Positions 1,191 to 42,509 of a stretch of DNA of 64,000 bases are shown in pieces. Made by a program: the position numbers and the translations under genes. Position 1 is the first letter of the stretch. Each line of letters begins with the position of its first letter. The stretch is taken from the IMG/VR virus record IMGVR_UViG_3300034072_000926, positions 41,621-105,620 of that record; one strand, written 5' to 3'. The notes beneath the pieces were generated by a model. The model was not told the DNA's origin and ran no database searches. It saw only the letters and a program-made list of their open reading frames with translations. Origin of the DNA: a virus.

Positions 1191-1943
1191 TTACTTGTTG
1201 TTTGTATAGGGGGCCACTTTCCGAGCAAAGTCGGCGAAGTTTTTCATCTCCTTGACATTGAACGGGAGACGATAGATAGCGAGGGCTGCTCGTATCCCCA
1301 TCACCGCTAGTTCGATATCAAGCGTTCCGAGCCACGTTATGAATCGGTCGCCCTGCTCATAAAAGATGATATTCGGCTTGCCGTATTTCTCGAGCGTTGC
1401 TTTGAGACCCTCGCACACTTCCTTGATAACACGACAGTTCTCTTCAAAGGTGTCCGCAGGACCCCGTGCTTGCCCGCTCAGAACAAGATCACCTGTTAGC
1501 TGTCCGCTGTCGAGATCAAGGTCAAGTTCTTCTATGAGGGCTTCTACATGCTCCTCATAGGTTGTGCCATCGAGGTAGACAGTTGGCCAATGATAAGCCG
1601 TTATGTCCTTTGCAAAATGGACCGTGTATCCAGCTTTACCGCTGAAGATTCGTTCCTCGAGATGTGCGAGACGAACAGTAGTCTTATCATCGGCAAGCAC
1701 TTCAAAGCCGCAATAGCGACGCAAATACTGCCACGCATAGACTTGCATGTCGAGATGCAGGCCGCCGATCCACAGAGCGAGGTTGTTGATACCGTCCTTG
1801 ATGGCTTCGGGATTGCGTTTCCCATCAAGGTCATAGAAAATAATTGAGGCTTGGTGAATCAGTTCCATCTGAAAATCAGGATGGAACGTCTCTTCTGGCC
1901 ATTTGCCATCAAGAATCTGTTGGGCTATCTCTCGATTAGTCAT
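1191..1943 (-). CDS. hypothetical protein (250 aa)
   Basis: long ORF in same-strand gene block; no motif I can place. Confidence 0.45.
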   Translation of the reverse strand: MTNREIAQQILDGKWPEETFHPDFQMELIHQASIIFYDLDGKRNPEAIKDGINNLALWIGGLHLDMQVYAWQYLRRYCGFEVLADDKTTVRLAHLEERIFSGKAGYTVHFAKDITAYHWPTVYLDGTTYEEHVEALIEELDLDLDSGQLTGDLVLSGQARGPADTFEENCRVIKEVCEGLKATLEKYGKPNIIFYEQGDRFITWLGTLDIELAVMGIRAALAIYRLPFNVKEMKNFADFARKVAPYTNNK

Positions 1944-2151
1944 AAGAAACCTCCTGTGCTACCTTTGCTTGTAACACAGGAGGTCTGTTTGTCAACCCAT
2001 TGTAGTGAATTCCATGCCGTGCCTTGTGCCGACATATGGGCGTCGCACATCAGTGCGATGCATATTCAATACAATATCAGTTCCCTTCAGTGCGACCCGA
2101 AGGCTCTTGTCTGATTTTCGGAGAATGTCTGCTTCTATCGTTTTGCCCGTA

Positions 2152-2535
2152 TCAGTCGAGCTTACTGAGCAGGTCTCCGAACATTGCTGTCGTGTCATCT
2201 TCGTTCACCGGTTCCGTATAACCGAGAGTCATACGAAGCATGTCCATGAACACGCTGCGATCCGACTTCTCACCCATCGACCGATCTAACATGCCTTGCA
2301 CCACGTATGCAAGAATTTGGTAATCACTCTTGACCTGATCGCAGCCAAAATTGATTCCATTCGCCGCGAGCATCGTATGCATCTGCTGATGGATGCTGAC
2401 CTGTGGATTGGAAACCTTACGGAAGTCGTTCAGACGAACTACCTTGTCCTCAGTGTTTCCATCGTTTGAGTTAGCAACCTCTCCTTTGTTGTCGTCGCTG
2501 TTCATGATGCGACTTTCCAAACGAATAACATTCAT
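2152..2535 (-). CDS. hypothetical protein (127 aa)
   Basis: ORF track; acidic N-terminus; no recognisable motif. Confidence 0.35.
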   Translation of the reverse strand: MNVIRLESRIMNSDDNKGEVANSNDGNTEDKVVRLNDFRKVSNPQVSIHQQMHTMLAANGINFGCDQVKSDYQILAYVVQGMLDRSMGEKSDRSVFMDMLRMTLGYTEPVNEDDTTAMFGDLLSKLD

Positions 2536-2779
2536 AAGACACGCGGTCCCCCTTCACGCATTTCGACACGGATTTTGCTGGAGCGACCCGGCTTAAACCC
2601 ACAGCGCCAACACCCTCTCAAAAGCGTCTTTGCTGTAAAGGGTAAGCTATGTGTTCACACCTTACACGTCAAGCGGAATATGTAGCAGTAGTGTTGCAAA
2701 ACCGTTGAATTTCTGCAACACAGTCTAATAAACCATTGATAGAACAATGGAATATTTTCAAACAACCGTTAATTATTTT

Positions 2780-2824
2780 GAACAAAAAGGGTTAACAGGG
2801 TCCTTTAGAAACACCTGTTAACCC
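2780..2824 (-). terminator. rho-independent terminator after IF-3 gene
   Basis: perfect 11-bp inverted repeat GGGTTAACAGG(2789-2799)/CCTGTTAACCC(2814-2824); on minus strand followed by TTTTTGTT. Confidence 0.55.
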
Positions 2825-2879
2825 TTGGGGTTGTATGAAACTATAGATTCCTTGCCCGAGCAAGTAAATCTTAGTTAAT

Positions 2880-3410
2880 TTACGTAGTTTTCTTTGCCGC
2901 CGGCGCAACAATCGCAAAGAGCTGTCGCTCACTGCGGGCAACCGGGCGCTCAAACTTGAAATCTGTGAGGAATCCCAAGAAATCATTCATCACGCTGGCA
3001 CCAACATCCAAGTGCGTGATTTCACGGCCCTTGAACTTGATGATGATCTTGACCTTGTCGCCTTCATCCAGGAAACCCTGTGCGCGCTTGGCCTTGACCT
3101 TGAGGTCATTCATGTCTGTGGTAGGGCGAAGCTGAATCTCTTTCAGTTCAACCCTCGACTCCCTGGACTTCTTGGCAGCTTCCTTTGCACGACGACTCTC
3201 GTCATACTTGAACTTGCCATAATCCAGGATTTTGCAGACTGGCATACCGTTAGCCATATTGATAGCTACGAGATCCAGGCCTACCTGACGGGCCCGGTTT
3301 CGAGCGTCGATCAGTGAAACTACACCAATCTGCTCACCAGTGTCAGCAATGAGACGTACTTCTTTTGCGCGGATCTGATCATTCACCGCATACTTAAAAT
3401 TCACAGACAA
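2880..3410 (-). CDS. infC: translation initiation factor IF-3 homolog
   Basis: 176 aa; alignable over full length with bacterial IF3 (IRAKEVRLI..GEQIGVVSL..A...A...GLDLV.I......PVCKILDYGKFKY...R.......KE..KEIQLRP.TD..D..VK......FL.EGDKVKI...F.GRE..H...G..V); both N and C domains present. Confidence 0.88.
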   Translation of the reverse strand: MSVNFKYAVNDQIRAKEVRLIADTGEQIGVVSLIDARNRARQVGLDLVAINMANGMPVCKILDYGKFKYDESRRAKEAAKKSRESRVELKEIQLRPTTDMNDLKVKAKRAQGFLDEGDKVKIIIKFKGREITHLDVGASVMNDFLGFLTDFKFERPVARSERQLFAIVAPAAKKTT

Positions 3411-3467: not shown

Positions 3468-4718
3468 TCAAGCTACTTTTGGGTTCTCGAAAACCACAAC
3501 AGGCTCTGCTGTTCCTTCAATGACATCCTTCGTTACTCGGATGGTAACTGCGCCTTGATCCTTCAGATCAGGTAGGTCATATTGGACCTGGATGAGACGC
3601 TTCTCAATAACGCTCCTCAGACCACGCGCACCAGTCTTACGGGTAATAGCGTCGACCGCGACAGCCTTGAGTGCTTCGTCGTCAAATTCAAGCGAGATGT
3701 TCTCAAGCTGGAACATCTTAGAGAACTGCTTCACAAGTGCATTCTTTGGTTCAGTGAGAACACGAACCAACTGCTCCTGGTCTAGCTCTTCCAAGCTAGT
3801 GATAACCGGAAGACGACCCACTAGCTCTGGAATCAAACCGAACTTCTGAAGATCTTCTGGCTCTACGCTATTAAGCAATTTGCTTGAGACCTTGCTGTTG
3901 TCTCCCTTAACGGAAGCACCAAAGCCGATGCTACCCTTGCCCTTGTTCATACGCTTGCCGATGATTTCATCCAAGCCCACGAATGCACCGCCAACAATGA
4001 ACAGGATGTTCTTCGTATTCACTACGGCCATCTCTGCATTTGGATGCTTACGGTTACCCTGTAGGGGCACACGAACTTCACTACCCTCGATAATCTTCAG
4101 CAAAGCTTGCTGAACACCCTCGCCTGACACGTCGCGGCTAATGGACGCGCTATCACCCCTACGGGCTTTCTTATCTACTTCGTCGAGGTAGATAATACCA
4201 CGCTCGGCCTTCGCCACATCATTATCGCATACCTGGAGCAAGCGAGAGATGATGGTCTCAACGTCATCACCCACATAACCAGCCTCAGTCAGCGAAGTCG
4301 CGTCAGCAATTGTGAATGGAACGTCGAGCAACTTCGCGATGCTCTTGGCCATGAGGGTCTTACCAGAACCGGTTGGGCCGAGCAGAAGGATGTTGGACTT
4401 TTCAAGCTCAACATCGTCAACCACAGGATTGGCTAGACGCTTGTAGTGATTATGAACCGCAACTGCCATGACCATCTTGGCATCATTTTGACCAATCACA
4501 TACTGGTCAAGAAACTCTCGGATTTGACGAGGGCTAGGAATCTCACCATCTTTGAGAGACATCTTGGTCTCTGCATTAGTGTCTTCCTTGAGGATGTCAG
4601 CACAAAGCTGGACACAGTCATTGCAGATAAAAACATCAGGTCCAGCAATCAGCTTCTGGACATGTTCTTGCTTCTTTCCGCAGAAGCTGCACGTTAGGGA
4701 CTTTTTGTTCTCGCTCAT
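3468..4718 (-). CDS. clpX: ATP-dependent Clp protease ATP-binding subunit ClpX
   Basis: 416 aa; N-terminal C4 zinc finger CSFCGK..CNDC; Walker A LLLGPTGSGKTLMA; full-length ClpX-like (IGF-loop region, sensor motifs). Confidence 0.9.
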   Translation of the reverse strand: MSENKKSLTCSFCGKKQEHVQKLIAGPDVFICNDCVQLCADILKEDTNAETKMSLKDGEIPSPRQIREFLDQYVIGQNDAKMVMAVAVHNHYKRLANPVVDDVELEKSNILLLGPTGSGKTLMAKSIAKLLDVPFTIADATSLTEAGYVGDDVETIISRLLQVCDNDVAKAERGIIYLDEVDKKARRGDSASISRDVSGEGVQQALLKIIEGSEVRVPLQGNRKHPNAEMAVVNTKNILFIVGGAFVGLDEIIGKRMNKGKGSIGFGASVKGDNSKVSSKLLNSVEPEDLQKFGLIPELVGRLPVITSLEELDQEQLVRVLTEPKNALVKQFSKMFQLENISLEFDDEALKAVAVDAITRKTGARGLRSVIEKRLIQVQYDLPDLKDQGAVTIRVTKDVIEGTAEPVVVFENPKVA

Positions 4719-4827
4719 ACCGACCTCGAGTATTCAGGTTTACCTGATATTTAGTTTTGTCGATCAAGGGCACTCGAGGGTAAATCCGGAGGACACCTTA
4801 TTGTATGTCCTCCGGAACTAGATTGCA

Positions 4828-6183
4828 TTATAAACCTGGTCGAACCTGTCGCATACTTTCTACGACCTGCACAATGTCGTTGACAATATCTGGATTCATC
4901 TCCAGTAACTCGATGATTAGATCCTTCGGAGTCCTTGGATCATCCTCAAGAGCCTGTGGTTCAACCTGTTCTGGCTTCCAGGCATTGATAGCGTTCTGCT
5001 GAACAGTTAACTGATCTTCCCACTGTTTTAGTAGCTCGCGCTCATCGTTCAAGCGAGCTTCCATAAGGAGCAATTCCTTATGGGCATTCTCGAGAACATC
5101 CTGGTCGATTGCTAAAATAGCACGGGCTTCGTCGAGTTCACTCTGATCTTTAGCTGATGCTTTCAATTGAGCAATCTCAGCCGTCAATGCTTCAACATCG
5201 AAATCGTCTTTCTCAACTGATTCCTCTTCGAGTTTAAGCTTCGTGTAAATTGGCTTGTAGTCTTCATCCAATTCAAGGAGTTGACCATCTATTGGCTTAA
5301 TAGTCACAGGTGCTTCTTCAACAGACCCGGTATGAGGATAGTTGATCTTATTGAGATCCATTTCATCTTCCTTGATCTGTTCAAGAATCTCCTGAACTGG
5401 AACCAAGGGTTCTGGAATCACAACTGCCTCGACCTTAACAGCTTTGGCCTTATCCTCTTTACGCTTCTGAAGTGAGATGCTACCCATGATGAACATCGCA
5501 ATAGCAAGAGGATCGAACGCAGCCATGATGAGCGAGATAATGATCCTGATTGCCTTCTGAGGATCCATGCCCAGAGCTTCGGCGATGAACTTTGCAACAC
5601 CGAGTTCTCCCTCAACATCACCGGTCTTCATCTTCAGAGGCACGAGCTTCTGAGTGATATCGTTGATTGTTGAGTTGTTAGCGTCAATGGTCTTCTGAAT
5701 CTCAGCAGCTTCTTTTTTCGATTGGTTCGAAGCACGGAGACCCGCACGAGCATTGCCTTCTAGGACTTTATCGGTGATCTTGCTGATCTGTCCCAAACGG
5801 GATTCAAGACGGACGTTCTCGTCTTGCTTCTGTTTCAGTTGGGTCTCGAGTTGAGCAACCTGAATACCAAGGCCAGCTAGTGGCGCCTGTTGTTCAAGAT
5901 GACCCTTACTCAGATAGCCATACACGCCGAGGCTTGTGATGGCCATAAGACATGCAACAAAGAAACAGAGTAGGCCGCGGAAATACCAAGGAGCCGCAGG
6001 GTTTCTCCAGTTGGCGTGAATCCACTTGGCGGTCACAATCTTGCCGACCTCAAGTGATGCGCCCATGATGACCACACCCCAGAAGGTAGCCGCAAAGATG
6101 CTGCCTAGACCTACTAGGGAGAAGTATGCCGCTACAGCAGAGATTGCAGCCGCGACGAAAAAGATGAGAATGATGAATGCCAT
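4828..6183 (-). CDS. membrane protein with long coiled-coil region
   Basis: 451 aa; two N-terminal hydrophobic segments plus a C-terminal TM; central heptad-like Q/E/K-rich region. Confidence 0.5.
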   Translation of the reverse strand: MAFIILIFFVAAAISAVAAYFSLVGLGSIFAATFWGVVIMGASLEVGKIVTAKWIHANWRNPAAPWYFRGLLCFFVACLMAITSLGVYGYLSKGHLEQQAPLAGLGIQVAQLETQLKQKQDENVRLESRLGQISKITDKVLEGNARAGLRASNQSKKEAAEIQKTIDANNSTINDITQKLVPLKMKTGDVEGELGVAKFIAEALGMDPQKAIRIIISLIMAAFDPLAIAMFIMGSISLQKRKEDKAKAVKVEAVVIPEPLVPVQEILEQIKEDEMDLNKINYPHTGSVEEAPVTIKPIDGQLLELDEDYKPIYTKLKLEEESVEKDDFDVEALTAEIAQLKASAKDQSELDEARAILAIDQDVLENAHKELLLMEARLNDERELLKQWEDQLTVQQNAINAWKPEQVEPQALEDDPRTPKDLIIELLEMNPDIVNDIVQVVESMRQVRPGL

Positions 6184-31118: not shown

Positions 31119-32870
31119 TTAGAGTTCGTCGGGATTGATACCAGCCAGCTTCTGCAGCTCTGCCTTTTCCTGTGCCGAAATTGCTTCGGCCGAACCACGG
31201 GCCTTACGGACCGGAGCAGTCCTCACCGGCGCAGGAGCACCAACAACTTCCAGCGAACCATCTTCGTTCAGCGGAGCAGCGGCAGCTTCGACCAGACCGT
31301 TCAGACCACGGCTCAGGTCAACACCCAGTTCGCGAGCCATTTCGTCAATGACCGGAACCTGCAGTCGGTAACCCAGCATCGAGTTGGTCAGGTCAGTTGC
31401 GAGATTGCCAGTGGTCTGAGTGCCACTGATTGCGCCTTCGCCGGCCTGGCCACCAAGGCCGCCCAGACCACCCATCTGCACAACGCGGATGCTGTCGACC
31501 TTCTCCATCGGCTTGGTCATCTTTTCCATGATGGTCGGCATGGATTCGATAAGCGCCTTGCGGAGGTTGTAAGCCATCTGCGCCGGAGTGACGACGTTAG
31601 CAGCTTCGTTGAGGGCGCGCTGACCTTCGGATTCAACTTCATAACGCTTTGCGTCAGCGTCGATGAGTCGTTCCTTGGCCTTAGCCTGCGAGTCGGCAGC
31701 TTCGAGCTCAGCAGCAGCCATAACGCGGATACGAGTTGCTTCCTGTTCAGCTGCCTGCTCTGCCTGGATGACCGCAACGCGCTTTGCACGTTCTGCCGAA
31801 GCCTCAGCTTCAACGGTCTTCACTGCTTCAGTTGCACGAACCTGTTCTGCACGAGCATTGTCTGCTGCTGCGCGGGCCTTCGATTCCTGCTCCGACTTCT
31901 CAGCAACAGCAATACGCGACTGCTGGCTTGCAATCTCGAGAGCCTGAGCTGCCTCAGTCTCAGAGACCTTGATTGCGCGCTCCTTAGCAACGCGAGCCTG
32001 TTCGGTCGTCTTGGCGGCTTCGATTTCGGCCAGGTCCGATTCACGCTTGCGCTCTGCACGGGTCTGAGCCAGTTCAGCTTCCTGAGCTGCACGACGGGTT
32101 TCGACTTCACGCTGCTGTTCGAGGGTAGCGAACTCGTTCTGCTGCTTGATTTCCAGCGAACGCTTGTTGGCTTCGAAGTTCTTCTGCTCAATCGCAACGC
32201 GGTTGTCAGCTTCGATTTCGTTACGCTCCTTACGACGCGTCTCAGTGACCTGAGTCAGCTTCGCAAGACCTTCAGCGTCGAAGGCGTTGTTGGGGTTGAA
32301 GAACTTAACGTCCGTCTGGTCAAGACCAGTCAGCGAGACCGATTCCAGTTCCAGGCCGTTCTTCTTCAGGTCTTCCGCAACAGTGTTCTGAACCTTCTGA
32401 ACGAAGTCACCGCGCTTTTCATGCAGGTCCTGCATGTCCATCGAAGCAGCCGCAGCGCGCAGGGCGTCGACGAACTTACCTTCGACCAGACCAGCAAGCT
32501 GATCAGGTGCCATCGTGCGACGGCCAAGGGTCTGTGCCGCAGTGGCAATTGCAGTAGCATCAGGCGCGACGCGAACATAGAACTCTGCACGAACGTCGAC
32601 GCGCAGCCGGTCCTTGGTGATCAGCGAAGCTTCGCCACCGCCACGCTGAACAGTGAGGCGCAGGGTCTGCATATTGATCGGGATAGTTTCGTGCAGGATA
32701 GGAAGCACGATTGCACCGCCGTCCTTCACAACCTTTTCGCCGCCGAAACCGGTGCGGACGAAAGCCAGTTCCTTCGATGCACGATGGAACATCTTGGTCA
32801 TGATTAGGCCGAGGACGATAATTCCAAGGACAATCACGCCTGTAACAATTAGGCCAAACTGAAGACTCAT
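31119..32870 (-). CDS. flotillin-like SPFH/band-7 protein (YqiK-like)
   Basis: 583 aa; N-terminal TM, SPFH domain, long E/A/R/K-rich coiled-coil (flotillin repeats). Confidence 0.8.
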   Translation of the reverse strand: MSLQFGLIVTGVIVLGIIVLGLIMTKMFHRASKELAFVRTGFGGEKVVKDGGAIVLPILHETIPINMQTLRLTVQRGGGEASLITKDRLRVDVRAEFYVRVAPDATAIATAAQTLGRRTMAPDQLAGLVEGKFVDALRAAAASMDMQDLHEKRGDFVQKVQNTVAEDLKKNGLELESVSLTGLDQTDVKFFNPNNAFDAEGLAKLTQVTETRRKERNEIEADNRVAIEQKNFEANKRSLEIKQQNEFATLEQQREVETRRAAQEAELAQTRAERKRESDLAEIEAAKTTEQARVAKERAIKVSETEAAQALEIASQQSRIAVAEKSEQESKARAAADNARAEQVRATEAVKTVEAEASAERAKRVAVIQAEQAAEQEATRIRVMAAAELEAADSQAKAKERLIDADAKRYEVESEGQRALNEAANVVTPAQMAYNLRKALIESMPTIMEKMTKPMEKVDSIRVVQMGGLGGLGGQAGEGAISGTQTTGNLATDLTNSMLGYRLQVPVIDEMARELGVDLSRGLNGLVEAAAAPLNEDGSLEVVGAPAPVRTAPVRKARGSAEAISAQEKAELQKLAGINPDEL

Positions 32871-32891
32871 TACATTCTCCTACTGAGTCGG

Positions 32892-33536
32892 TTAAATCTT
32901 ACGCACATTGAAGGCGTAGGAATTCTTGCTGTTAGGACCGATTAACACCGCGCTTTCTCCCACATCAATATTCTCGTCACCTGTGGCGAAAACAAAAATG
33001 TAGTGGTCCTGACCATGCTGGTCGGTAACACGGAGTGATCCACTCACTTCGCTGGTTGCTGGTCCCATAACCAATACCCCGACCTGTCCCGTGAGACTCT
33101 CAATCGTAACGGCCGAGGTAATGTCCTGAGGCATTATGCGTGAGAACGCCGTAGAGCCCCAACGAACAAAGGGTAGGGTGAGAGCAGTCACGACCGGGAT
33201 ACTCAAGCCAAGGGGCGCGAGCGAACCAGAGAACCCACTGTAAGCCCATTGTGCGCTATACCCGAGAGCAGTGAATACAGTGCTGAAAATAACAATGAAC
33301 ACCATCGCGGGAACATGACCCGGATTGATCCAATTGAAGAATCCACCATCTACCTCGAGGTAGTCTGGGATGCCATTGTTATTGAGGTCGGCGGTGAAAT
33401 CGACATCACTATGGAAGATCGAAAGGCCGAGGATCAGACCGATGATCTCTACAAGGAATATCGCGGCCAATAGACAACCTGTGACCATGAAGGGCAGGTT
33501 AGCTGGGTCGGTGATGAATAAGATTAGGTCGTTCAT
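32892..33536 (-). CDS. YqiJ/NfeD-like inner membrane protein
   Basis: 214 aa; multiple TM segments plus C-terminal OB-fold-like region; sits immediately upstream of the flotillin gene, as in yqiJK operons. Confidence 0.55.
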   Translation of the reverse strand: MNDLILFITDPANLPFMVTGCLLAAIFLVEIIGLILGLSIFHSDVDFTADLNNNGIPDYLEVDGGFFNWINPGHVPAMVFIVIFSTVFTALGYSAQWAYSGFSGSLAPLGLSIPVVTALTLPFVRWGSTAFSRIMPQDITSAVTIESLTGQVGVLVMGPATSEVSGSLRVTDQHGQDHYIFVFATGDENIDVGESAVLIGPNSKNSYAFNVRKI

Positions 33537-33871: not shown

Positions 33872-34031
33872 ACTTCTACTTATCGAGCAGACATGAGTAA
33901 CCCAGGAGGTTTTTAATCCTCCTGGGTCATTCCGACCTTCGGCATTTGAGAGACTACCGAGGGCTGTGATTTATATAATGTGGGGAGAAGTGAGTTGCAA
34001 GACTTGCAATTGCAATAAGCAACTTAATCTG

Positions 34032-34104
34032 TGCTGTCTATGGGACTTGAACCCATGACCTCTTCATTACCAATGAAGTGCTACTACCACTGAGCTAAGA
34101 CAGC
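34032..34104 (-). tRNA. tRNA-Thr (anticodon GGU)
   Basis: 73 nt cloverleaf with 7-bp acceptor stem GCTGTCT/AGACAGC, anticodon stem CTTCA/TGAAG, loop TTGGTAA, T-arm ATGGG-TTCAAGT-CCCAT; CCA not encoded. Confidence 0.8.
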
Positions 34105-34150: not shown

Positions 34151-34492
34151 TTATTTCAGGAGAAGATTTAGGGCTTTTGTCATATCATCGAAGGAAGCTG
34201 GCTTCTCAATGAGATTAAAACCATGATAGCAAGACGAGAGACGATGGAGTTCACCGGTGCAGATCAAACCCGGCGTGAGGGTCTTCCTCATCATATCAGC
34301 AACGGGTTCAGAAGTGCCATCAAGTAATGTCACGTCGAGGATCACTCCGGAGAAGCGATTCACTCTGATCAGTTCCATGGCCTCTTTAACAGTCCCGACC
34401 ATGGCCGCGACGTCCACTCCCTCTTCTTTGCAGACTTCTTCCCAATATAATTGCAGGAAGGCCTCGTCTTCGACGATAAGGACAGTGGACAT
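34151..34492 (-). CDS. stand-alone response-regulator receiver (REC/CheY-like) domain protein
   Basis: 113 aa; VLIVEDE start, acidic pocket, phosphoacceptor-like D in ILDVTLLDG, conserved T and K positions. Confidence 0.6.
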   Translation of the reverse strand: MSTVLIVEDEAFLQLYWEEVCKEEGVDVAAMVGTVKEAMELIRVNRFSGVILDVTLLDGTSEPVADMMRKTLTPGLICTGELHRLSSCYHGFNLIEKPASFDDMTKALNLLLK

Positions 34493-35274: not shown

Positions 35275-35466
35275 TCAGTCCAGCAAATCTTCATCAAACT
35301 GAAGTCGGAAACGAAAAGCCTCATCAATTCCCGAGAAGCTGAGTTCGAGAGAGTCGTCATCTGCGTTAACGATTGCGCTCTGATCGACATGCTCATCCGC
35401 AAGCCACTTTACAACCTTATCCTTAGATGCGGCATCCACCCACAACGTCCATGTGCTTGCGACCAT
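35275..35466 (-). CDS. small acidic hypothetical protein
   Basis: 63 aa. Confidence 0.3.
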   Translation of the reverse strand: MVASTWTLWVDAASKDKVVKWLADEHVDQSAIVNADDDSLELSFSGIDEAFRFRLQFDEDLLD

Positions 35467-35569
35467 TTGTACCTCGTTTGTTTTGCTAAGAACTGATATC
35501 TAACGCCCAGAGCGTTCTTTTTCAATATATTCCTTAACAATATAGGTTAAGGTCAGGTGCATCAGCCAT

Positions 35570-35639
35570 GAGAAAAGGTGGCCCGTCCTGTTGTTCGGTG
35601 GAGCCATACCGCACCTAGGGAGTTGATCCCCTAGGGATT
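35570..35639. repeat. copy A of ~70-nt direct repeat with internal hairpin
   Basis: about 88% identical to 37054-37122; hairpin CCTAGGG/CCCTAGG. Confidence 0.6.
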
Positions 35640-35699
35640 GTGAGGCATAGGAGTCTACCGAAGCTTCTTCCTAACCTCGCTGCCGTTAGGCAGAAAATA

Positions 35700-36011
35700 T
35701 CAACAGCCGAGAGAGATTTTCTCAGCCTTTAGTTCATCAACTAGATCATTAAGACAGTCGACTTCACTATCGAAGATATCAGGAAAATCGGAAATAATAC
35801 CTTGAATTTCGTAGATGACTTCAATGAGGTGATCTACATCCTCACATCGTCCAGAATAGCGAGCAACATCCTCATACGGGAGCTCAGCATCAGCGCCTTC
35901 AGGATCATACCCGATCTTGGCACGAGACTCTTCTACTGCCTTCTTAACAGCAGGGCAAACCTGCCCACTAACCATATTAGCGAGCAGGAGAACCAAGGCA
36001 ACATCTGTCAT
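35700..36011 (-). CDS. hypothetical protein (103 aa)
   Basis: ORF track. Confidence 0.4.
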   Translation of the reverse strand: MTDVALVLLLANMVSGQVCPAVKKAVEESRAKIGYDPEGADAELPYEDVARYSGRCEDVDHLIEVIYEIQGIISDFPDIFDSEVDCLNDLVDELKAEKISLGC

Positions 36012-36202
36012 TAGACTTCCTTTGCCTTAAATGCTTCTGCTTTCTGCTCCATGCTCTTGAGCAAATTAAACAGCTTAGTGCCAGCAGCAATCATCTTGCC
36101 GTAAGCGGGATGGTCAGTGTTCTTGTGCATCCAATCCTCAAATTCTAATAGTTGTTCTTGAGACATGCTGGTGATCAGCGCATCTGCTTTATGTGTAGCC
36201 AT
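36011..36202 (-). CDS. small hypothetical protein (63 aa)
   Basis: ATGA-type overlap with the downstream gene. Confidence 0.35.
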   Translation of the reverse strand: MATHKADALITSMSQEQLLEFEDWMHKNTDHPAYGKMIAAGTKLFNLLKSMEQKAEAFKAKEV

Positions 36203-36291
36203 TGTATGTTCTCCTTAGCGACGGCGTCAATTACAGAATAATCCGATTGGCGCCTCCAGTCCATCGCTTGCTCAATAAATACAGTAGGTAA

Positions 36292-37077
36292 GTGGGAGGA
36301 TCCGACCCCTCCCACAACCCGGCTTGGAGCATCCAGGCTGTCCCTTACTGGTATTTATTGGAGCCCATTATGCGCCATCAGCACGACTACTATGGATTCG
36401 TCTATCTCTGGCGAGACTCTGAAACTAATCGATTCTATATCGGCAGTCATTACGGTAGCACAACCGACTCCTATATTGCGAGTTCCAAGTGGTTGAAATC
36501 CGCATATAAGAAGCGTCCTCATACCTTTAGGCGACGTATCCTTCAATACCTCACAACAGACGACAAGAAGCTGCTTCATCAAATAGAACAGGCTTGGCTT
36601 GATTTGATCAAGGATGAAGAATTAGGTAAGCGTTATTATAATCTTAAGAAATTCGCAGCCGGTGGGAATGGTTCTGCTAATAAAGGTAAAACTAGAATTT
36701 CTTGGAGGAAAGGCTTGTCTAATGAAATGATCCAACTTCGTAAAGATGGTCTATTCTGTGTCATGTCTTGTGACAAGCCTAAGCCAAGAAACCAGAGGGT
36801 TACGAAGCCTAAAAAGGTAACTATTCCAAGGAAACCTACACCGATCATTGATAAGGACTGTGAACTTTGTGGAACAACTTTCCAAACAAAGAGAGCCGGT
36901 CGATTCTGTAGCAAATCTTGTTCAAACAAAAATAACGGAAAGAATGTAGACCGAGCAGCAAATGGTCGCAAAGGTTCCGAGAAGATGCGAGAGATTGCTA
37001 CAAATCGTATTAGACATTACGATTCAGACGGATCATGGACTTGGATGTATAAAGAGAAAAGTGACCCGTCCTGTTGA
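36292..37077 (+). CDS. GIY-YIG homing endonuclease (Seg-like) with C-terminal zinc finger
   Basis: YGFVYLWRD...RFYIGSH GIY-YIG motif; CELCG...CSKSC; real start probably Met at about 36370. Confidence 0.75.
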   Translation: MGGSDPSHNPAWSIQAVPYWYLLEPIMRHQHDYYGFVYLWRDSETNRFYIGSHYGSTTDSYIASSKWLKSAYKKRPHTFRRRILQYLTTDDKKLLHQIEQAWLDLIKDEELGKRYYNLKKFAAGGNGSANKGKTRISWRKGLSNEMIQLRKDGLFCVMSCDKPKPRNQRVTKPKKVTIPRKPTPIIDKDCELCGTTFQTKRAGRFCSKSCSNKNNGKNVDRAANGRKGSEKMREIATNRIRHYDSDGSWTWMYKEKSDPSC

Positions 37078-37122
37078 TCGGTGGAGTCATACCGCACCTA
37101 AGGAGTTGATTGCCTTAGGAAT
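37054..37122. repeat. copy B of ~70-nt direct repeat with internal hairpin
   Basis: hairpin CCTAAGG/CCTTAGG (compensatory relative to copy A), followed by AATTTT. Confidence 0.6.
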
Positions 37123-37421
37123 TTTGCCAATTAGGCAGCCAGAGCTACTTCATTGGCGACAACTTCGTTGTCATTGACAGTTACGTCGTTGGTCTTTTAA
37201 GGAAACCACTCCTGTTATCTCTCGCAGCCGTTTGCGCACACGTCGATCCTAAGTTCAGGCCCATCATAACCGCTCTTTACAGAGCCGAGTCACTTCTTAG
37301 GGCAGTGACTCTCAGTTATGGTGGACCTGCCGGGTACCGCCCCCGGGTCCGTTGATTGCTATTAAGCTTTGGTCATCAATAACAACACCACTATAACAAT
37401 GGTGTTACGGGCTGTCAAGCC

Positions 37422-37721
37422 TTAATTAGCAGTCGCTGCCCTATATTGTTCGGCGGCGTCTTCCTTAGGTAGAGCACCAGCAACAATATGGGATTCACGA
37501 ATCGAAACAGTTGCGTCATTATCTGCCGCAGCCATCCAAGGCGTGAACATCACACGAACCTGCGTTGGGTTCTCTGGATTCTCAGCCAAGACCATAGCGA
37601 GTGGATTCTTGACCTTGACTTCTGAAGGGGTGAATTCGACAACCAGCGCGATGATCTCTTCGCCCGTCGATAGCTTCATAGTCATAATGGTAGGCTCTGT
37701 GGCCTTCTTCTCATGTAGCAT
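37422..37721 (-). CDS. hypothetical protein (99 aa)
   Basis: ORF track. Confidence 0.4.
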   Translation of the reverse strand: MLHEKKATEPTIMTMKLSTGEEIIALVVEFTPSEVKVKNPLAMVLAENPENPTQVRVMFTPWMAAADNDATVSIRESHIVAGALPKEDAAEQYRAATAN

Positions 37722-40202: not shown

Positions 40203-42509
40203 TTAGAGCTTGCAGGAATCGCAATCTTCGTCGTCTAGAATCTCTTCTAGTTCTTCATCACTCTTTGTCTCGTTGACGACGAGGGTGACGTCTTCCTGAC
40301 CGTCATAAGTGTTGAAGTAATAGAGGTTCTTGCCGCCATACTTGTAGAAGTTCAACAAGTCAGTGATCATGTCCTTCATGGAAATCTCACGATTCTCATA
40401 ATGGTCAGGATTGTAGCTGGTGTTGACACTTGCGCTCTGATCCAGATACTTGTTAAGAACACAAGCAACCTTCAGATAACCGGCAGGCCCGCGCTGATCC
40501 CAAAGTAGTTCATACTTGTTCTTCAGCTTGCCAATCTCAGGCACAACCTGCTTGAGCACGCCATGCTTGGAGACCTTCTCAGAAACCAGCGCACGAACAG
40601 GTTCAATGCCATTGGTCGAGTTGGACAACTGAGCAGAAGTCTCTGCGGGCATCAGAGCCATCAGAGTGGTATTGCGGATACCATTCTTGATCAGCTGAGC
40701 ACGGAGATCTTCCCAAGGCATACGAGTCGTTGGTTCGACTAGTTCATCCAGATCACGCTTGTAGGTGTCAATGGGCATAACACCTTGGCTATACTTGGAC
40801 TTGTAAGAACCTGGGCAGGCTCCCTTTTCCAAAGCCAGATCGGCTGAAGCCTTGATCAGGTAGTAGGACATGCCTTCCATGTATTCGTCGACCAGTGGAA
40901 GAGCAGCATCGTCATACTTCAGACCATTCTTCGCAAGGAAGTAGGCCAGGTTGATGATACCAACGCCGAGAGGACGAAGTTCCTTCGTAGCAAGTTCTGC
41001 GGCCTTGACTGGGTAATTCTGGTAGCTGAGAATTTCATCAAGGAAGCGAACAACCAGCTTTGCAGGCTTTTCGAAATCATGAGGTGTCTTGACACGACCC
41101 CAGTTGAGTGCGCTGAGGGTGCAAAGGCTGATGCGACCATTGGGATCGTCGAAGTGCTGCATTGGAACCGTAGGAAGTGTGATTTCCTGGCAGAGGTTGC
41201 TCTGCGTGATCGGAGCCAACTCAGGGATATACGAACCATGCGAGTTTGCGTGGTCAATGTTCATGAGGTAGATACGACCAGTTTCCTTACGCTCGGTCAT
41301 GAACGTAATAAACACATCGAGGGCCTTCATTGACTTCTTACGAATCTTTGGATCAGCTTCGTAATGAGTGTAGAGGCGATCAAACTCGTCCTGATCAGCA
41401 TAGAACGCATCAAGGAGACCCGGAACATCCTTAGGTGAGAAGAACGTAATGTCTCCACCTTCCACAAGACGCTTATACATCATGCGGTTAAACAGGAAGC
41501 TATAGTCGAGGTGACGAATACGATTCTGTTCAGTGCCCTTGTTGTTCTTCAGAACAATCAGGTCCTCAAATTCGTAATGCCAAAGCGGGAAGTGGACAGT
41601 AGCCGCACCACCGCGAACACCGCCTTGCGAACAGCTCTTAACTGCTGCCTGCATCCAGCGAACAAACGGCAAAAGACCAGTATGTTCAGCATCGCCATTG
41701 CGGATCTTCGAACCAAGAGCACGAACACGACCCATGTCAATACCAAGCCCTGCCTTCTGGCTGATATACTTGACAACGCTGCTATTTGTGGCAACGAGAG
41801 AATCAAGAGAGTCGTCAGTCGAAATGGTAACACACGAGCTGAACTGCTTCTGTGGCGTCCTCAGACCTGCCATGATGGGCGTAGGCAGGCTGATGTCGAA
41901 CTGGCTTACTGCATCGTAGAAATCCTTGATGTAGTCCATGCGGGTATCCTTGGGATACGCCATGAAGCCAATCGCGCTGATCAGAACCAGAGCAATCTGC
42001 GGGGTTTCAAAGAACTGACCGGTAACGCGGTCCTTGACGAGATACTTGCCGCGCCACTGTTCCATGCCAGCGTAGGCAATCAAGTCGTCTCGCGTATGCT
42101 TGACGATCTTCTCAAGCTTCTTCCACTCTTCGTCGTTGAAGTTGTCGAGCAGTTCCTGAGTGTAATGACCCTCAGCGACATTCTTCTCAACAACCTGCTT
42201 AACAGTCCAAGGCTCATAACGGCCATAGACTTCCTTACGAAGCTGGTAGCTAGCCAGACGACTAGCAACGAACTGGTAGTTTGGAGTTTCCTCGCTGATC
42301 AGTTCGCTTGCGCTCTTAACGAGCAGTTCGTGAATCTTGGTGCTCAAGACTCCGTCTTCTAGCTGAAGCTGGGCGCGGAGTTCTACCTCGGAAGGTGAAA
42401 CACCGGCAAGGTCTTCGCAGGCCCAGAAGACAACCTTATGAATCTTTTCGAGGTCTAATGCCTCTTTGCGGCCGTCACGCTTGACAACCATAATTGGTGT
42501 GTTGCCCAT
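40203..42509 (-). CDS. nrdA: ribonucleotide reductase class Ia alpha subunit
   Basis: ATP-cone VVKRDGRKE..D..KI; catalytic Cys/Asn/Glu regions; C-terminal CxxC tail; start set at MGNTPIM (42509) rather than track start 42557, because CTAAATAT sits 32 nt upstream of it. Confidence 0.9.
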   Translation of the reverse strand: MGNTPIMVVKRDGRKEALDLEKIHKVVFWACEDLAGVSPSEVELRAQLQLEDGVLSTKIHELLVKSASELISEETPNYQFVASRLASYQLRKEVYGRYEPWTVKQVVEKNVAEGHYTQELLDNFNDEEWKKLEKIVKHTRDDLIAYAGMEQWRGKYLVKDRVTGQFFETPQIALVLISAIGFMAYPKDTRMDYIKDFYDAVSQFDISLPTPIMAGLRTPQKQFSSCVTISTDDSLDSLVATNSSVVKYISQKAGLGIDMGRVRALGSKIRNGDAEHTGLLPFVRWMQAAVKSCSQGGVRGGAATVHFPLWHYEFEDLIVLKNNKGTEQNRIRHLDYSFLFNRMMYKRLVEGGDITFFSPKDVPGLLDAFYADQDEFDRLYTHYEADPKIRKKSMKALDVFITFMTERKETGRIYLMNIDHANSHGSYIPELAPITQSNLCQEITLPTVPMQHFDDPNGRISLCTLSALNWGRVKTPHDFEKPAKLVVRFLDEILSYQNYPVKAAELATKELRPLGVGIINLAYFLAKNGLKYDDAALPLVDEYMEGMSYYLIKASADLALEKGACPGSYKSKYSQGVMPIDTYKRDLDELVEPTTRMPWEDLRAQLIKNGIRNTTLMALMPAETSAQLSNSTNGIEPVRALVSEKVSKHGVLKQVVPEIGKLKNKYELLWDQRGPAGYLKVACVLNKYLDQSASVNTSYNPDHYENREISMKDMITDLLNFYKYGGKNLYYFNTYDGQEDVTLVVNETKSDEELEEILDDEDCDSCKL

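Follow-up and report, generated by a model that had tools for sequence, protein, structure and literature searches.

A 64,000-nt stretch of viral DNA (IMG/VR record IMGVR_UViG_3300034072_000926, positions 41,621 to 105,620 of that record; called here the window) contains on its minus strand a permuted (two-piece) transfer-messenger RNA (tmRNA) gene and, convergent on it, a free-standing gene for a GIY-YIG homing endonuclease. The endonuclease gene and two small open reading frames (ORFs) lie between two copies of a direct repeat, of which copy B forms the end of the tmRNA gene and copy A lies on the far side of the small ORFs. The window is from a phage, probably one with an alphaproteobacterial host. 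The features on which the argument depends are the following.

37422..37054, minus strand: permuted (two-piece) tmRNA gene, from Rfam and direct reading of the sequence
37390..37418, minus strand: sigma-70-like promoter of the tmRNA gene (TTGACA, 17-nt spacer, TATAGT, with TG before the second hexamer)
37327..37319, minus strand: end of the acceptor piece (...GGUCCACCA), which runs to CCA at 37321..37319
37318..37263, minus strand: intervening segment of 56 nt between the acceptor and coding pieces
37262, minus strand: start of the coding piece, which begins GGGCCUG (5' acceptor strand)
37178..37131, minus strand: tag ORF, VNDNEVVANEVALAA followed by the stop codon UAA at 37133..37131; the tag ends in ALAA, a hydrophobic degron type
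37138..37054, minus strand: resident tail including copy B, joined directly to the tmRNA body and without the ~40-nt helix of native tails
36370-37077, plus strand: free-standing GIY-YIG homing endonuclease gene, 235 aa, convergent on the tmRNA gene
35693..35570, minus strand: second copy of the tmRNA tail, 124 nt, including copy A (the displaced tail)
35275-35466, minus strand: conserved 63-aa gene (MVASTW...)

A repeat finder aligns 35574-35637 with 37057-37120 over 64 nt at 86% identity and without gaps, which bears out the ~70-nt direct repeat reported in an earlier note made from the letters of the window. The ORF coordinates likewise agree with that note in placing the GIY-YIG ORF (36370-37077, plus strand) and the small ORFs (36011-36202 and 35700-36011, minus strand) between the copies, copy B overlapping the final 8 codons of the endonuclease ORF. 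Each copy contains a hairpin with a 7-bp stem, CCTAGGG-AGTTGATC-CCCTAGG at 35614-35635 in copy A and CCTAAGG-AGTTGATTG-CCTTAGG at 37097-37119 in copy B, and the compensatory stem change claimed for them is present: a G-C pair is swapped for A-T with both arms changed. A second compensatory pair distinguishes the copies in stem 2 of a pseudoknot (GACUC/GGGUC in B, GGCUC/GGGCC in A). The homology begins earlier than had been described, at CTGCCTAA (37138..37131 and 35693..35686, minus sense), which is the 5' strand and loop of a small hairpin holding the tag stop codon; ~40 nt present in copy A are absent from copy B. A 36-nt degenerate core of the repeat matches only twice in the 64-kb window (0 expected from shuffles), and the further copies for which the earlier note proposed a search were not found in that scan. 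The repeat and the layout around it occur with 0 mismatches in three independent assemblies, one from ENA (a 160-kb contig) and two from Logan derived from other runs, and therefore are not an assembly artefact. Megablast of the 5-kb region against deposited phages gave no match, and an exact-pattern scan for the repeat core in viral contigs found nothing.

Copy B is the last 70 nt of the tmRNA gene, downstream of the tag stop codon. The alpha_tmRNA model of Rfam (RF01849) matches 37422..37060 over model positions 1-355 of 355 with 103.1 bits (gathering threshold 50), and the tmRNA_permuted model (RF04321) scores 98.9 bits (gathering threshold 47). The acceptor piece with its CCA lies upstream of the coding piece, the order of a circularly permuted gene. 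The acceptor stem GGGCCUG/CAGGUCC includes a G3-U pair, which is typical of alanine acceptors, and the tag stop codon sits in a hairpin loop (UGCC-UAAUU-GGCA). The promoter agrees with the consensus at 11 of 12 positions, and its TTGACA...TATA architecture is aligned in relatives. ARAGORN, run on the region, reported a tRNA-Thr and missed the tmRNA despite its 103-bit Rfam score, so the gene is easy to overlook; phage two-piece tmRNAs are probably under-annotated.

Two side observations concern the body and the form of such genes. Two independent Logan contigs (L023, L024) end at the same base, 37342, in the T-arm region of the tmRNA, where a ~39-nt stretch is identical to other phage tmRNAs (e.g. 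L001); related phages occurring together have probably produced a branch in the assembly graph at this point. In the permuted tmRNA gene of another locus, L014, the Rfam match spans 561 nt, the intervening segment being ~300 nt longer than usual and containing an ORF of ~90 codons (MGGMNNKTSKEV...; ~5640-5990 on the minus strand of that locus).

The resident tail is made up of the stop-codon hairpin UGCC-UAAUU-GGCA, the hairpin at 37119..37097, an H-type pseudoknot at 37094..37063, to which the last 8 endonuclease codons are antisense, and a U-rich end. The displaced tail has the same plan, with a stop-codon hairpin CUGCC-UAAC-GGCAG, a ~40-nt helix, the hairpin (35614-35635 on the plus strand), the pseudoknot and a U-rich end. 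In an alignment of the pseudoknot from 13 phage tmRNAs 82.9% of cells are paired, against 61% in shuffles; eight of the nine pairs have changes on both sides, and none of 500 shuffles did as well. On this comparison of sequences the elements of the tail are true tmRNA structures. The hairpin also varies among relatives, being CCTAGAG/CTCTAGG in L007 and, in L026, a G-U intermediate between the A and B forms; this covariation was read directly from the sequences without a tool count, as the MAFFT alignment of five hairpins shifted copy B by one base. A covariance model of the tail (R1), built from 13 resident tails with copy A left out, finds copy A with 41.1 bits (35574-35616) and copy B with 40.4 bits (37057-37099). 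As judged from these alignments, the compensatory differences between A and B exist because the two are diverged versions of one structured tmRNA domain, not a free-standing element reused twice.

The earlier note was right that structure is under selection here, and the covariation it saw is real and belongs to a tmRNA domain; working on the plus strand, it did not recognise that on the opposite strand the repeat encodes the 3' terminal domain of a two-piece tmRNA. Its leading idea was an independent regulatory element of ~70 nt (terminator, processing site or small RNA) used twice. Both copies do fold, a U-rich tract ends each of them on the minus strand, and copy A could still terminate transcripts of the small ORFs. 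Yet there are only two copies in 64 kb, copy B lies within a full-length Rfam tmRNA match, and copy A is built like the tmRNA tails of relatives. The AATTTT said to follow copy B is indeed there, on the plus strand and at copy B only; copy A has no T-run on that strand, and a terminator scan calls neither hairpin. An intrinsic terminator at both copies was rejected, as a G+C-rich hairpin with a T-run directly after it on the transcribed strand is not present at both, and a regulatory element of any of these kinds is very improbable. Two other readings in the same note, that of a homing site of which a mobile cassette has left remnants and that of a small structured RNA, each hold part of what is found.

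Related phage tmRNA loci were obtained through a T-arm/acceptor pattern and through a neighbouring protein; the single scan of metagenome DNA added just one further short locus (L016). The closest relatives lacking the endonuclease gene are L007 (a 462-kb contig), L011 and L012. Each has one tail followed within ~130 nt by a homolog of ORF 35275-35466 (66% identity in L007), which therefore marks the original downstream flank of the tmRNA gene. The comparison with relatives lacking the GIY-YIG gene, which the earlier note had suggested, accordingly returns a single tail at the site. Copy A and its extension are collinear with the native tails of these relatives, at 83% identity to L007 and 85% to L012, the first ~84 nt being nearly identical to L007. 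The tmRNA body of the window is also closest to L007 (the coding piece has 83% identity in its 5' part, the intervening segment 88%). For copy B the collinear sequence is instead the resident tail of L026 (76%), which likewise adjoins an endonuclease gene; both lack the ~40-nt helix and have the loop CAATCAACT in common.

The association of endonuclease and tmRNA extends beyond the window. A protein search gave 59 homologs of the endonuclease, and genomic context was fetched for eight whose similarity reaches past the nuclease domain or is high inside it (P0002, P0004, P0005, P0006, P0007, P0009, P0012 and P0020; 39-75% identity, 45-97% query coverage). A permuted tmRNA gene lies immediately downstream and convergent in all eight, at spacings from a ~57-nt overlap (L032) to a ~22-nt gap. 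The contigs are otherwise those of unrelated phages, and one of the tmRNAs is of the beta type. With the window included, the subfamily stands beside a tmRNA gene in 9/9 carrying loci. Three homologs sharing only the nuclease domain (P0047, P0031, P0017) are in other, T4-like contexts with no tmRNA detected by Rfam. The endonuclease is absent from L001-L018, L037 and L038, from every locus retrieved through the tmRNA itself and from the two deposited phages with similar tmRNAs (Lacusarx, vB_EliS-L02), whose permuted tmRNA gene has no endonuclease gene annotated beside it. Its presence is thus sporadic among related genomes and its position fixed next to a conserved gene. Scans with the endonuclease protein of viral contigs and of GTDB genomes found no relatives, and none of 50,697 deposited phage genomes has a full-length homolog; all known members of the family come from metagenome assemblies.

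A second tail is detected by R1 in five of the nine endonuclease-bearing loci (the window, L025, L026, L031 and L032) and in none of ten loci without the endonuclease, each of which gives exactly one match. In the endonuclease loci other than the window, the match is either a second one or the sole match beyond the endonuclease gene.

L026, 3574-3616: R1 tail match, 30.5 bits
L031, 3785-3829: R1 tail match, 21.2 bits
L032, 3574-3616: R1 tail match, 26.1 bits
L025, 1660-1704: R1 tail match, 21.6 bits

A tag end precedes the displaced tail in L031 (GCCTTGGCTGCCTAA) and in L032 (GCACTAGCTGCATGA). In L019, L021 and possibly L028 and L030, all that is seen just past the endonuclease gene is a short stretch similar to a tag end.

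Taken together, a GIY-YIG cassette with a replacement tmRNA tail probably sits inside the phage tmRNA gene, the native tail having been displaced 1.45 kb downstream. Direct support comes from the tmRNA gene itself, the identity of both repeats, the single tail of the relatives and the recurrent linkage of endonuclease and tmRNA. The earlier note had given as a refutation of its reading that the repeat might simply be a gene's 3' end, duplicated, in relatives; in substance it is such an end, with the duplication here attributed to a mobile endonuclease cassette. The mobile unit is best read as the replacement tail plus the endonuclease gene, which would make it comparable to the mORF elements of fungal mitochondria.

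As to cleavage, the position of the target, mobility and the use of copy B as the expressed tail, the following course may be inferred. The cassette of ~1.45 kb would lie within the tmRNA gene at the end of the tag reading frame and would comprise, in the sense of the tmRNA, the replacement tail (copy B), the antisense, convergent GIY-YIG gene with a structured leader, and two cargo ORFs. The original tail (copy A and ~55 nt) would have been pushed downstream and would no longer be joined to the tmRNA body. The endonuclease would cut cassette-free tmRNA genes near the tag end and the stop-codon hairpin. A genome that carries the cassette would then serve as the repair template, the conserved tmRNA body providing homology on the upstream side. 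Along with the replacement tail and the endonuclease gene, any cargo would be copied in; the recipient's own tail would remain downstream as a scar that also provides homology on that side. By its presence the replacement tail would preserve tmRNA function and, together with the disruption of the native junction, would protect the carrier from cutting itself. Given that copy A is intact in a genome that also encodes the endonuclease, the enzyme would most plausibly recognise a site spanning the point where the duplicated segment starts (tag end and stop-codon hairpin), and insertion would disrupt such a site on both sides. More speculatively, the endonuclease mRNA, being antisense to the tmRNA tail (with an overlap of up to ~57 nt in L032), could couple endonuclease expression to the tmRNA. 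The tag of the window, VNDNEVVANEVALAA, resembles that of L026 (VNDNEVVALAA) with an extra 12 nt (NEVA) that partly repeat the preceding codons; the extra nucleotides could be a repair scar near the presumed junction.

Several observations weigh against this course of events. Over the common 70 nt copy B is closest to copy A (86%) and only then to L026 (80%), and the pseudoknot part of A is nearer to B than to any relative. This closeness implies that the donor was a close relative, that gene conversion acted between A and B, or that B arose from A in place; the foreign origin of B is argued mainly from a single indel and one differing loop, both in short sequences. Four of the nine loci show no more than 12-25 nt similar to a tag end, a resemblance that could be due to chance. 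Cargo ORFs are not the same from one cassette to the next and the C-terminal regions of the endonucleases vary, so that the mobile unit is not uniform. In L026 the endonuclease (4001-4618) has the nuclease domain in common with that of the window (75% identity over residues 1-106), followed by an unrelated, shorter C-terminus. A frameshift does not account for the difference, which reflects either decay or the swapping of domains in this family.

The same closeness is what recommends a duplication in place, in which the tail would have been doubled by replication slippage or unequal recombination, the endonuclease and small ORFs inserted later, and copy B would be a shortened A. A and B are mutually closest over the 70 nt, and their identity rises to 91% when ungapped columns are counted. 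This account is unlikely, however, as four further phage contigs, unrelated and with tails of quite another sequence, have the same layout of tail, convergent endonuclease and second tail, copy B has its missing helix and its loop in common with the endonuclease-linked tail of L026, and two tails were never seen without an endonuclease gene in the ten loci that lack one. Insertion of a cassette with its own tail is retained for the window, and it is somewhat more likely than not that it extends to a class of mobile element not described before and specific to phage two-piece tmRNA genes, in which an endonuclease and a portable 3' domain (stop-codon hairpin, hairpin and pseudoknot) insert at the tag end and the RNA keeps its function.

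The nuclease itself looks intact, as predicted from a Pfam match above the cut-off, an I-TevI-like modelled fold and conserved catalytic residues. The match is to SegE_GIY-YIG (PF19835; 29.1 bits, cut-off 25), and PHROG 314, 'homing endonuclease', is matched with an E-value of 1e-12. A sequence profile search of solved structures gave nothing useful and a fold search was needed: the AlphaFold model (mean pLDDT 81.8, above 90 in the N-terminal domain) is matched best in the PDB by entries 1mk0 and 1ln0, both the catalytic domain of I-TevI (probability 1.00, TM score 0.59-0.60 on the target). Among 49 homologs Y12, R49, E73 and N91, as well as the GFVY and YIGSH motifs, are invariant or nearly so. 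A CxxC...CSxSC motif is present in the C-terminal half, which varies from one member of the family to another. The remaining features between the two tails are as follows.

36274-36369, plus strand: structured leader of the endonuclease gene, its outer stem formed by inverted ATAAATAC motifs (36275-36282 on the plus strand, 36351-36358 on the minus strand)
36230..36201, minus strand: sigma-70-like promoter match (TTGACG-18-TACAAT, 10/12), directly upstream of the first cargo ORF
36011-36202, minus strand: cargo ORF of 63 aa, inside the cassette
35700-36011, minus strand: cargo ORF of 103 aa, inside the cassette

The outer stem of the leader encloses two hairpins and ends just before a GGAG ribosome-binding site (36360-36363). 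Its minimum free energy in the window is -39.6 kcal/mol (z = -3.8), and the leader is conserved upstream of the endonuclease genes in L025 (1735-1831, z -2.8) and L031 (3908-4006, z -4.3), both hairpins being kept through compensatory changes in the three cassettes. The leader may regulate translation of the endonuclease; such regulation is known for the T4 seg genes and for I-TevI. An ATAAATA at the leader resembles a T4-type late promoter, and a weak Rfam match to Yfr1 at 36294-36341 (15 bits, E-value 9) was put down to chance. Neither cargo ORF matches a Pfam or PHROG family, and tblastn matched them only in identical contigs and in none of the other cassettes. With the promoter match they may be transcribed on their own toward the displaced tail.

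Some neighbouring genes recur at phage tmRNA loci. A tRNA-Thr gene (GGT; 34031-34104, minus strand) lies 1.2 kb beyond the displaced tail, and tRNA genes are also near the tmRNA gene in related loci. A receiver-only response regulator is near the tmRNA in the window (34151-34492, minus strand) and in L026, where the two-component region (1744-3360) also includes a PAS-histidine kinase; in L001 and L002 (in L002 from 11513 to the contig end) a kinase is probable, judged only from a similar ORF start. Protease-related genes are close to phage tmRNA genes in L021, where a ClpP-like protease (4289-4885) lies directly beyond the endonuclease gene, and in Erythrobacter phage vB_EliS-L02 (L038 3125-3574), where a 'proteasome subunit' gene adjoins the tmRNA. 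In the window (31119-33536) a Band_7/flotillin gene and a YqiJ-family gene are near the tmRNA.

Elements of related logic are known elsewhere. The endonuclease resembles the Seg proteins of T4-like phages (SegB, SegE, SegF, SegG) in its SegE_GIY-YIG family, its I-TevI-like fold, its free-standing gene and its sporadic occurrence, and also in being placed beside a conserved gene that is the presumed target. SegB lies in the tRNA gene cluster of T4-like phages and targets a region of structured RNA genes. The presumed target here is instead a tmRNA gene; Seg genes are intergenic and are not known to involve duplication of part of the target gene. Such duplication is the mark of fungal mitochondrial mORFs, described from atp6 of Allomyces macrogynus and from atp6, atp9, cox2 and nad3 of Glomus (PMC3630166). 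In those an endonuclease ORF (GIY-YIG in atp9) has entered the host gene close to its 3' end and brought along a foreign C-terminal portion, the native portion is displaced downstream, and the native copy resembles close relatives while the inserted copy is divergent (PMC3630166). The window likewise has an endonuclease ORF between two 3' portions of the host gene, the proximal copy being joined to the gene body. It differs in its phage setting, in an endonuclease gene that is antisense and convergent rather than an in-frame fusion, in its extra cargo ORFs, and in a host gene for a structured RNA, in which RNA helices rather than a reading frame are preserved.

Mobile elements at the tmRNA 3' end are also known from bacterial ssrA, where an incoming island supplies a version of that end itself and the original 3' fragment comes to lie displaced (PMC11915505). 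The repeats might by analogy be attL and attR of an integrase-mediated island in the 3' end of the gene. Those islands carry tyrosine integrases, have identical att cores and extend over many kb, whereas the element here is only 1.45 kb long, its copies are 86% identical with a 40-nt indel, and none of its three ORFs is an integrase or recombinase by Pfam or PHROG. The candidate was rejected for want of an integrase gene and an identical att core, and its probability is very slight.

Group I introns bearing homing endonuclease genes of the LAGLIDADG family invade the T-loop of tmRNA genes (PMC11915505), and the cassette could by that precedent be a spliced, intron-like insertion that joins the tag end to the tail at copy A as the functional end. 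In favour of this, copy A is complete, with an R1 score as high as that of copy B. Against such splicing, no intron family matches 35300-37700 in Rfam with E-values up to 10, copy B is a complete tail attached directly to the body, the endonuclease is of another family with its gene antisense, and the insertion lies at the tag end rather than in the T-loop. A group I intron was rejected, with no intron RNA core in the T-loop, and an intron of any kind is scarcely credible; replacement of the tail takes the place of splicing in the reading preferred here.

The 2025 paper on the tmRNA database, which covers standard, permuted and intron-bearing gene forms, genomic islands and 79 phage tmRNAs, contains nothing like the cassette (PMC11915505). 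A full-text literature search for tmRNA with homing endonuclease and phage, or with GIY-YIG, returned no paper describing the linkage. What is known, then, is an endonuclease that brings a replacement 3' end of its target gene; new are the tmRNA as substrate, the phage setting and the association held throughout a family. An odd repeat is explained in this way by known endonuclease logic acting on a new substrate, a structured RNA gene in phages.

For annotation, duplicated tails of this kind could pass for terminators or for small RNAs. The endonucleases may also find use as nucleases of defined sequence specificity, since the scars allow their natural targets to be predicted. If the interpretation is true, free-standing homing endonucleases would count tmRNA genes among their targets, phages would exchange the 3' domain and the tag end of their tmRNAs as a module, and displaced tails would be a natural record of past invasions.

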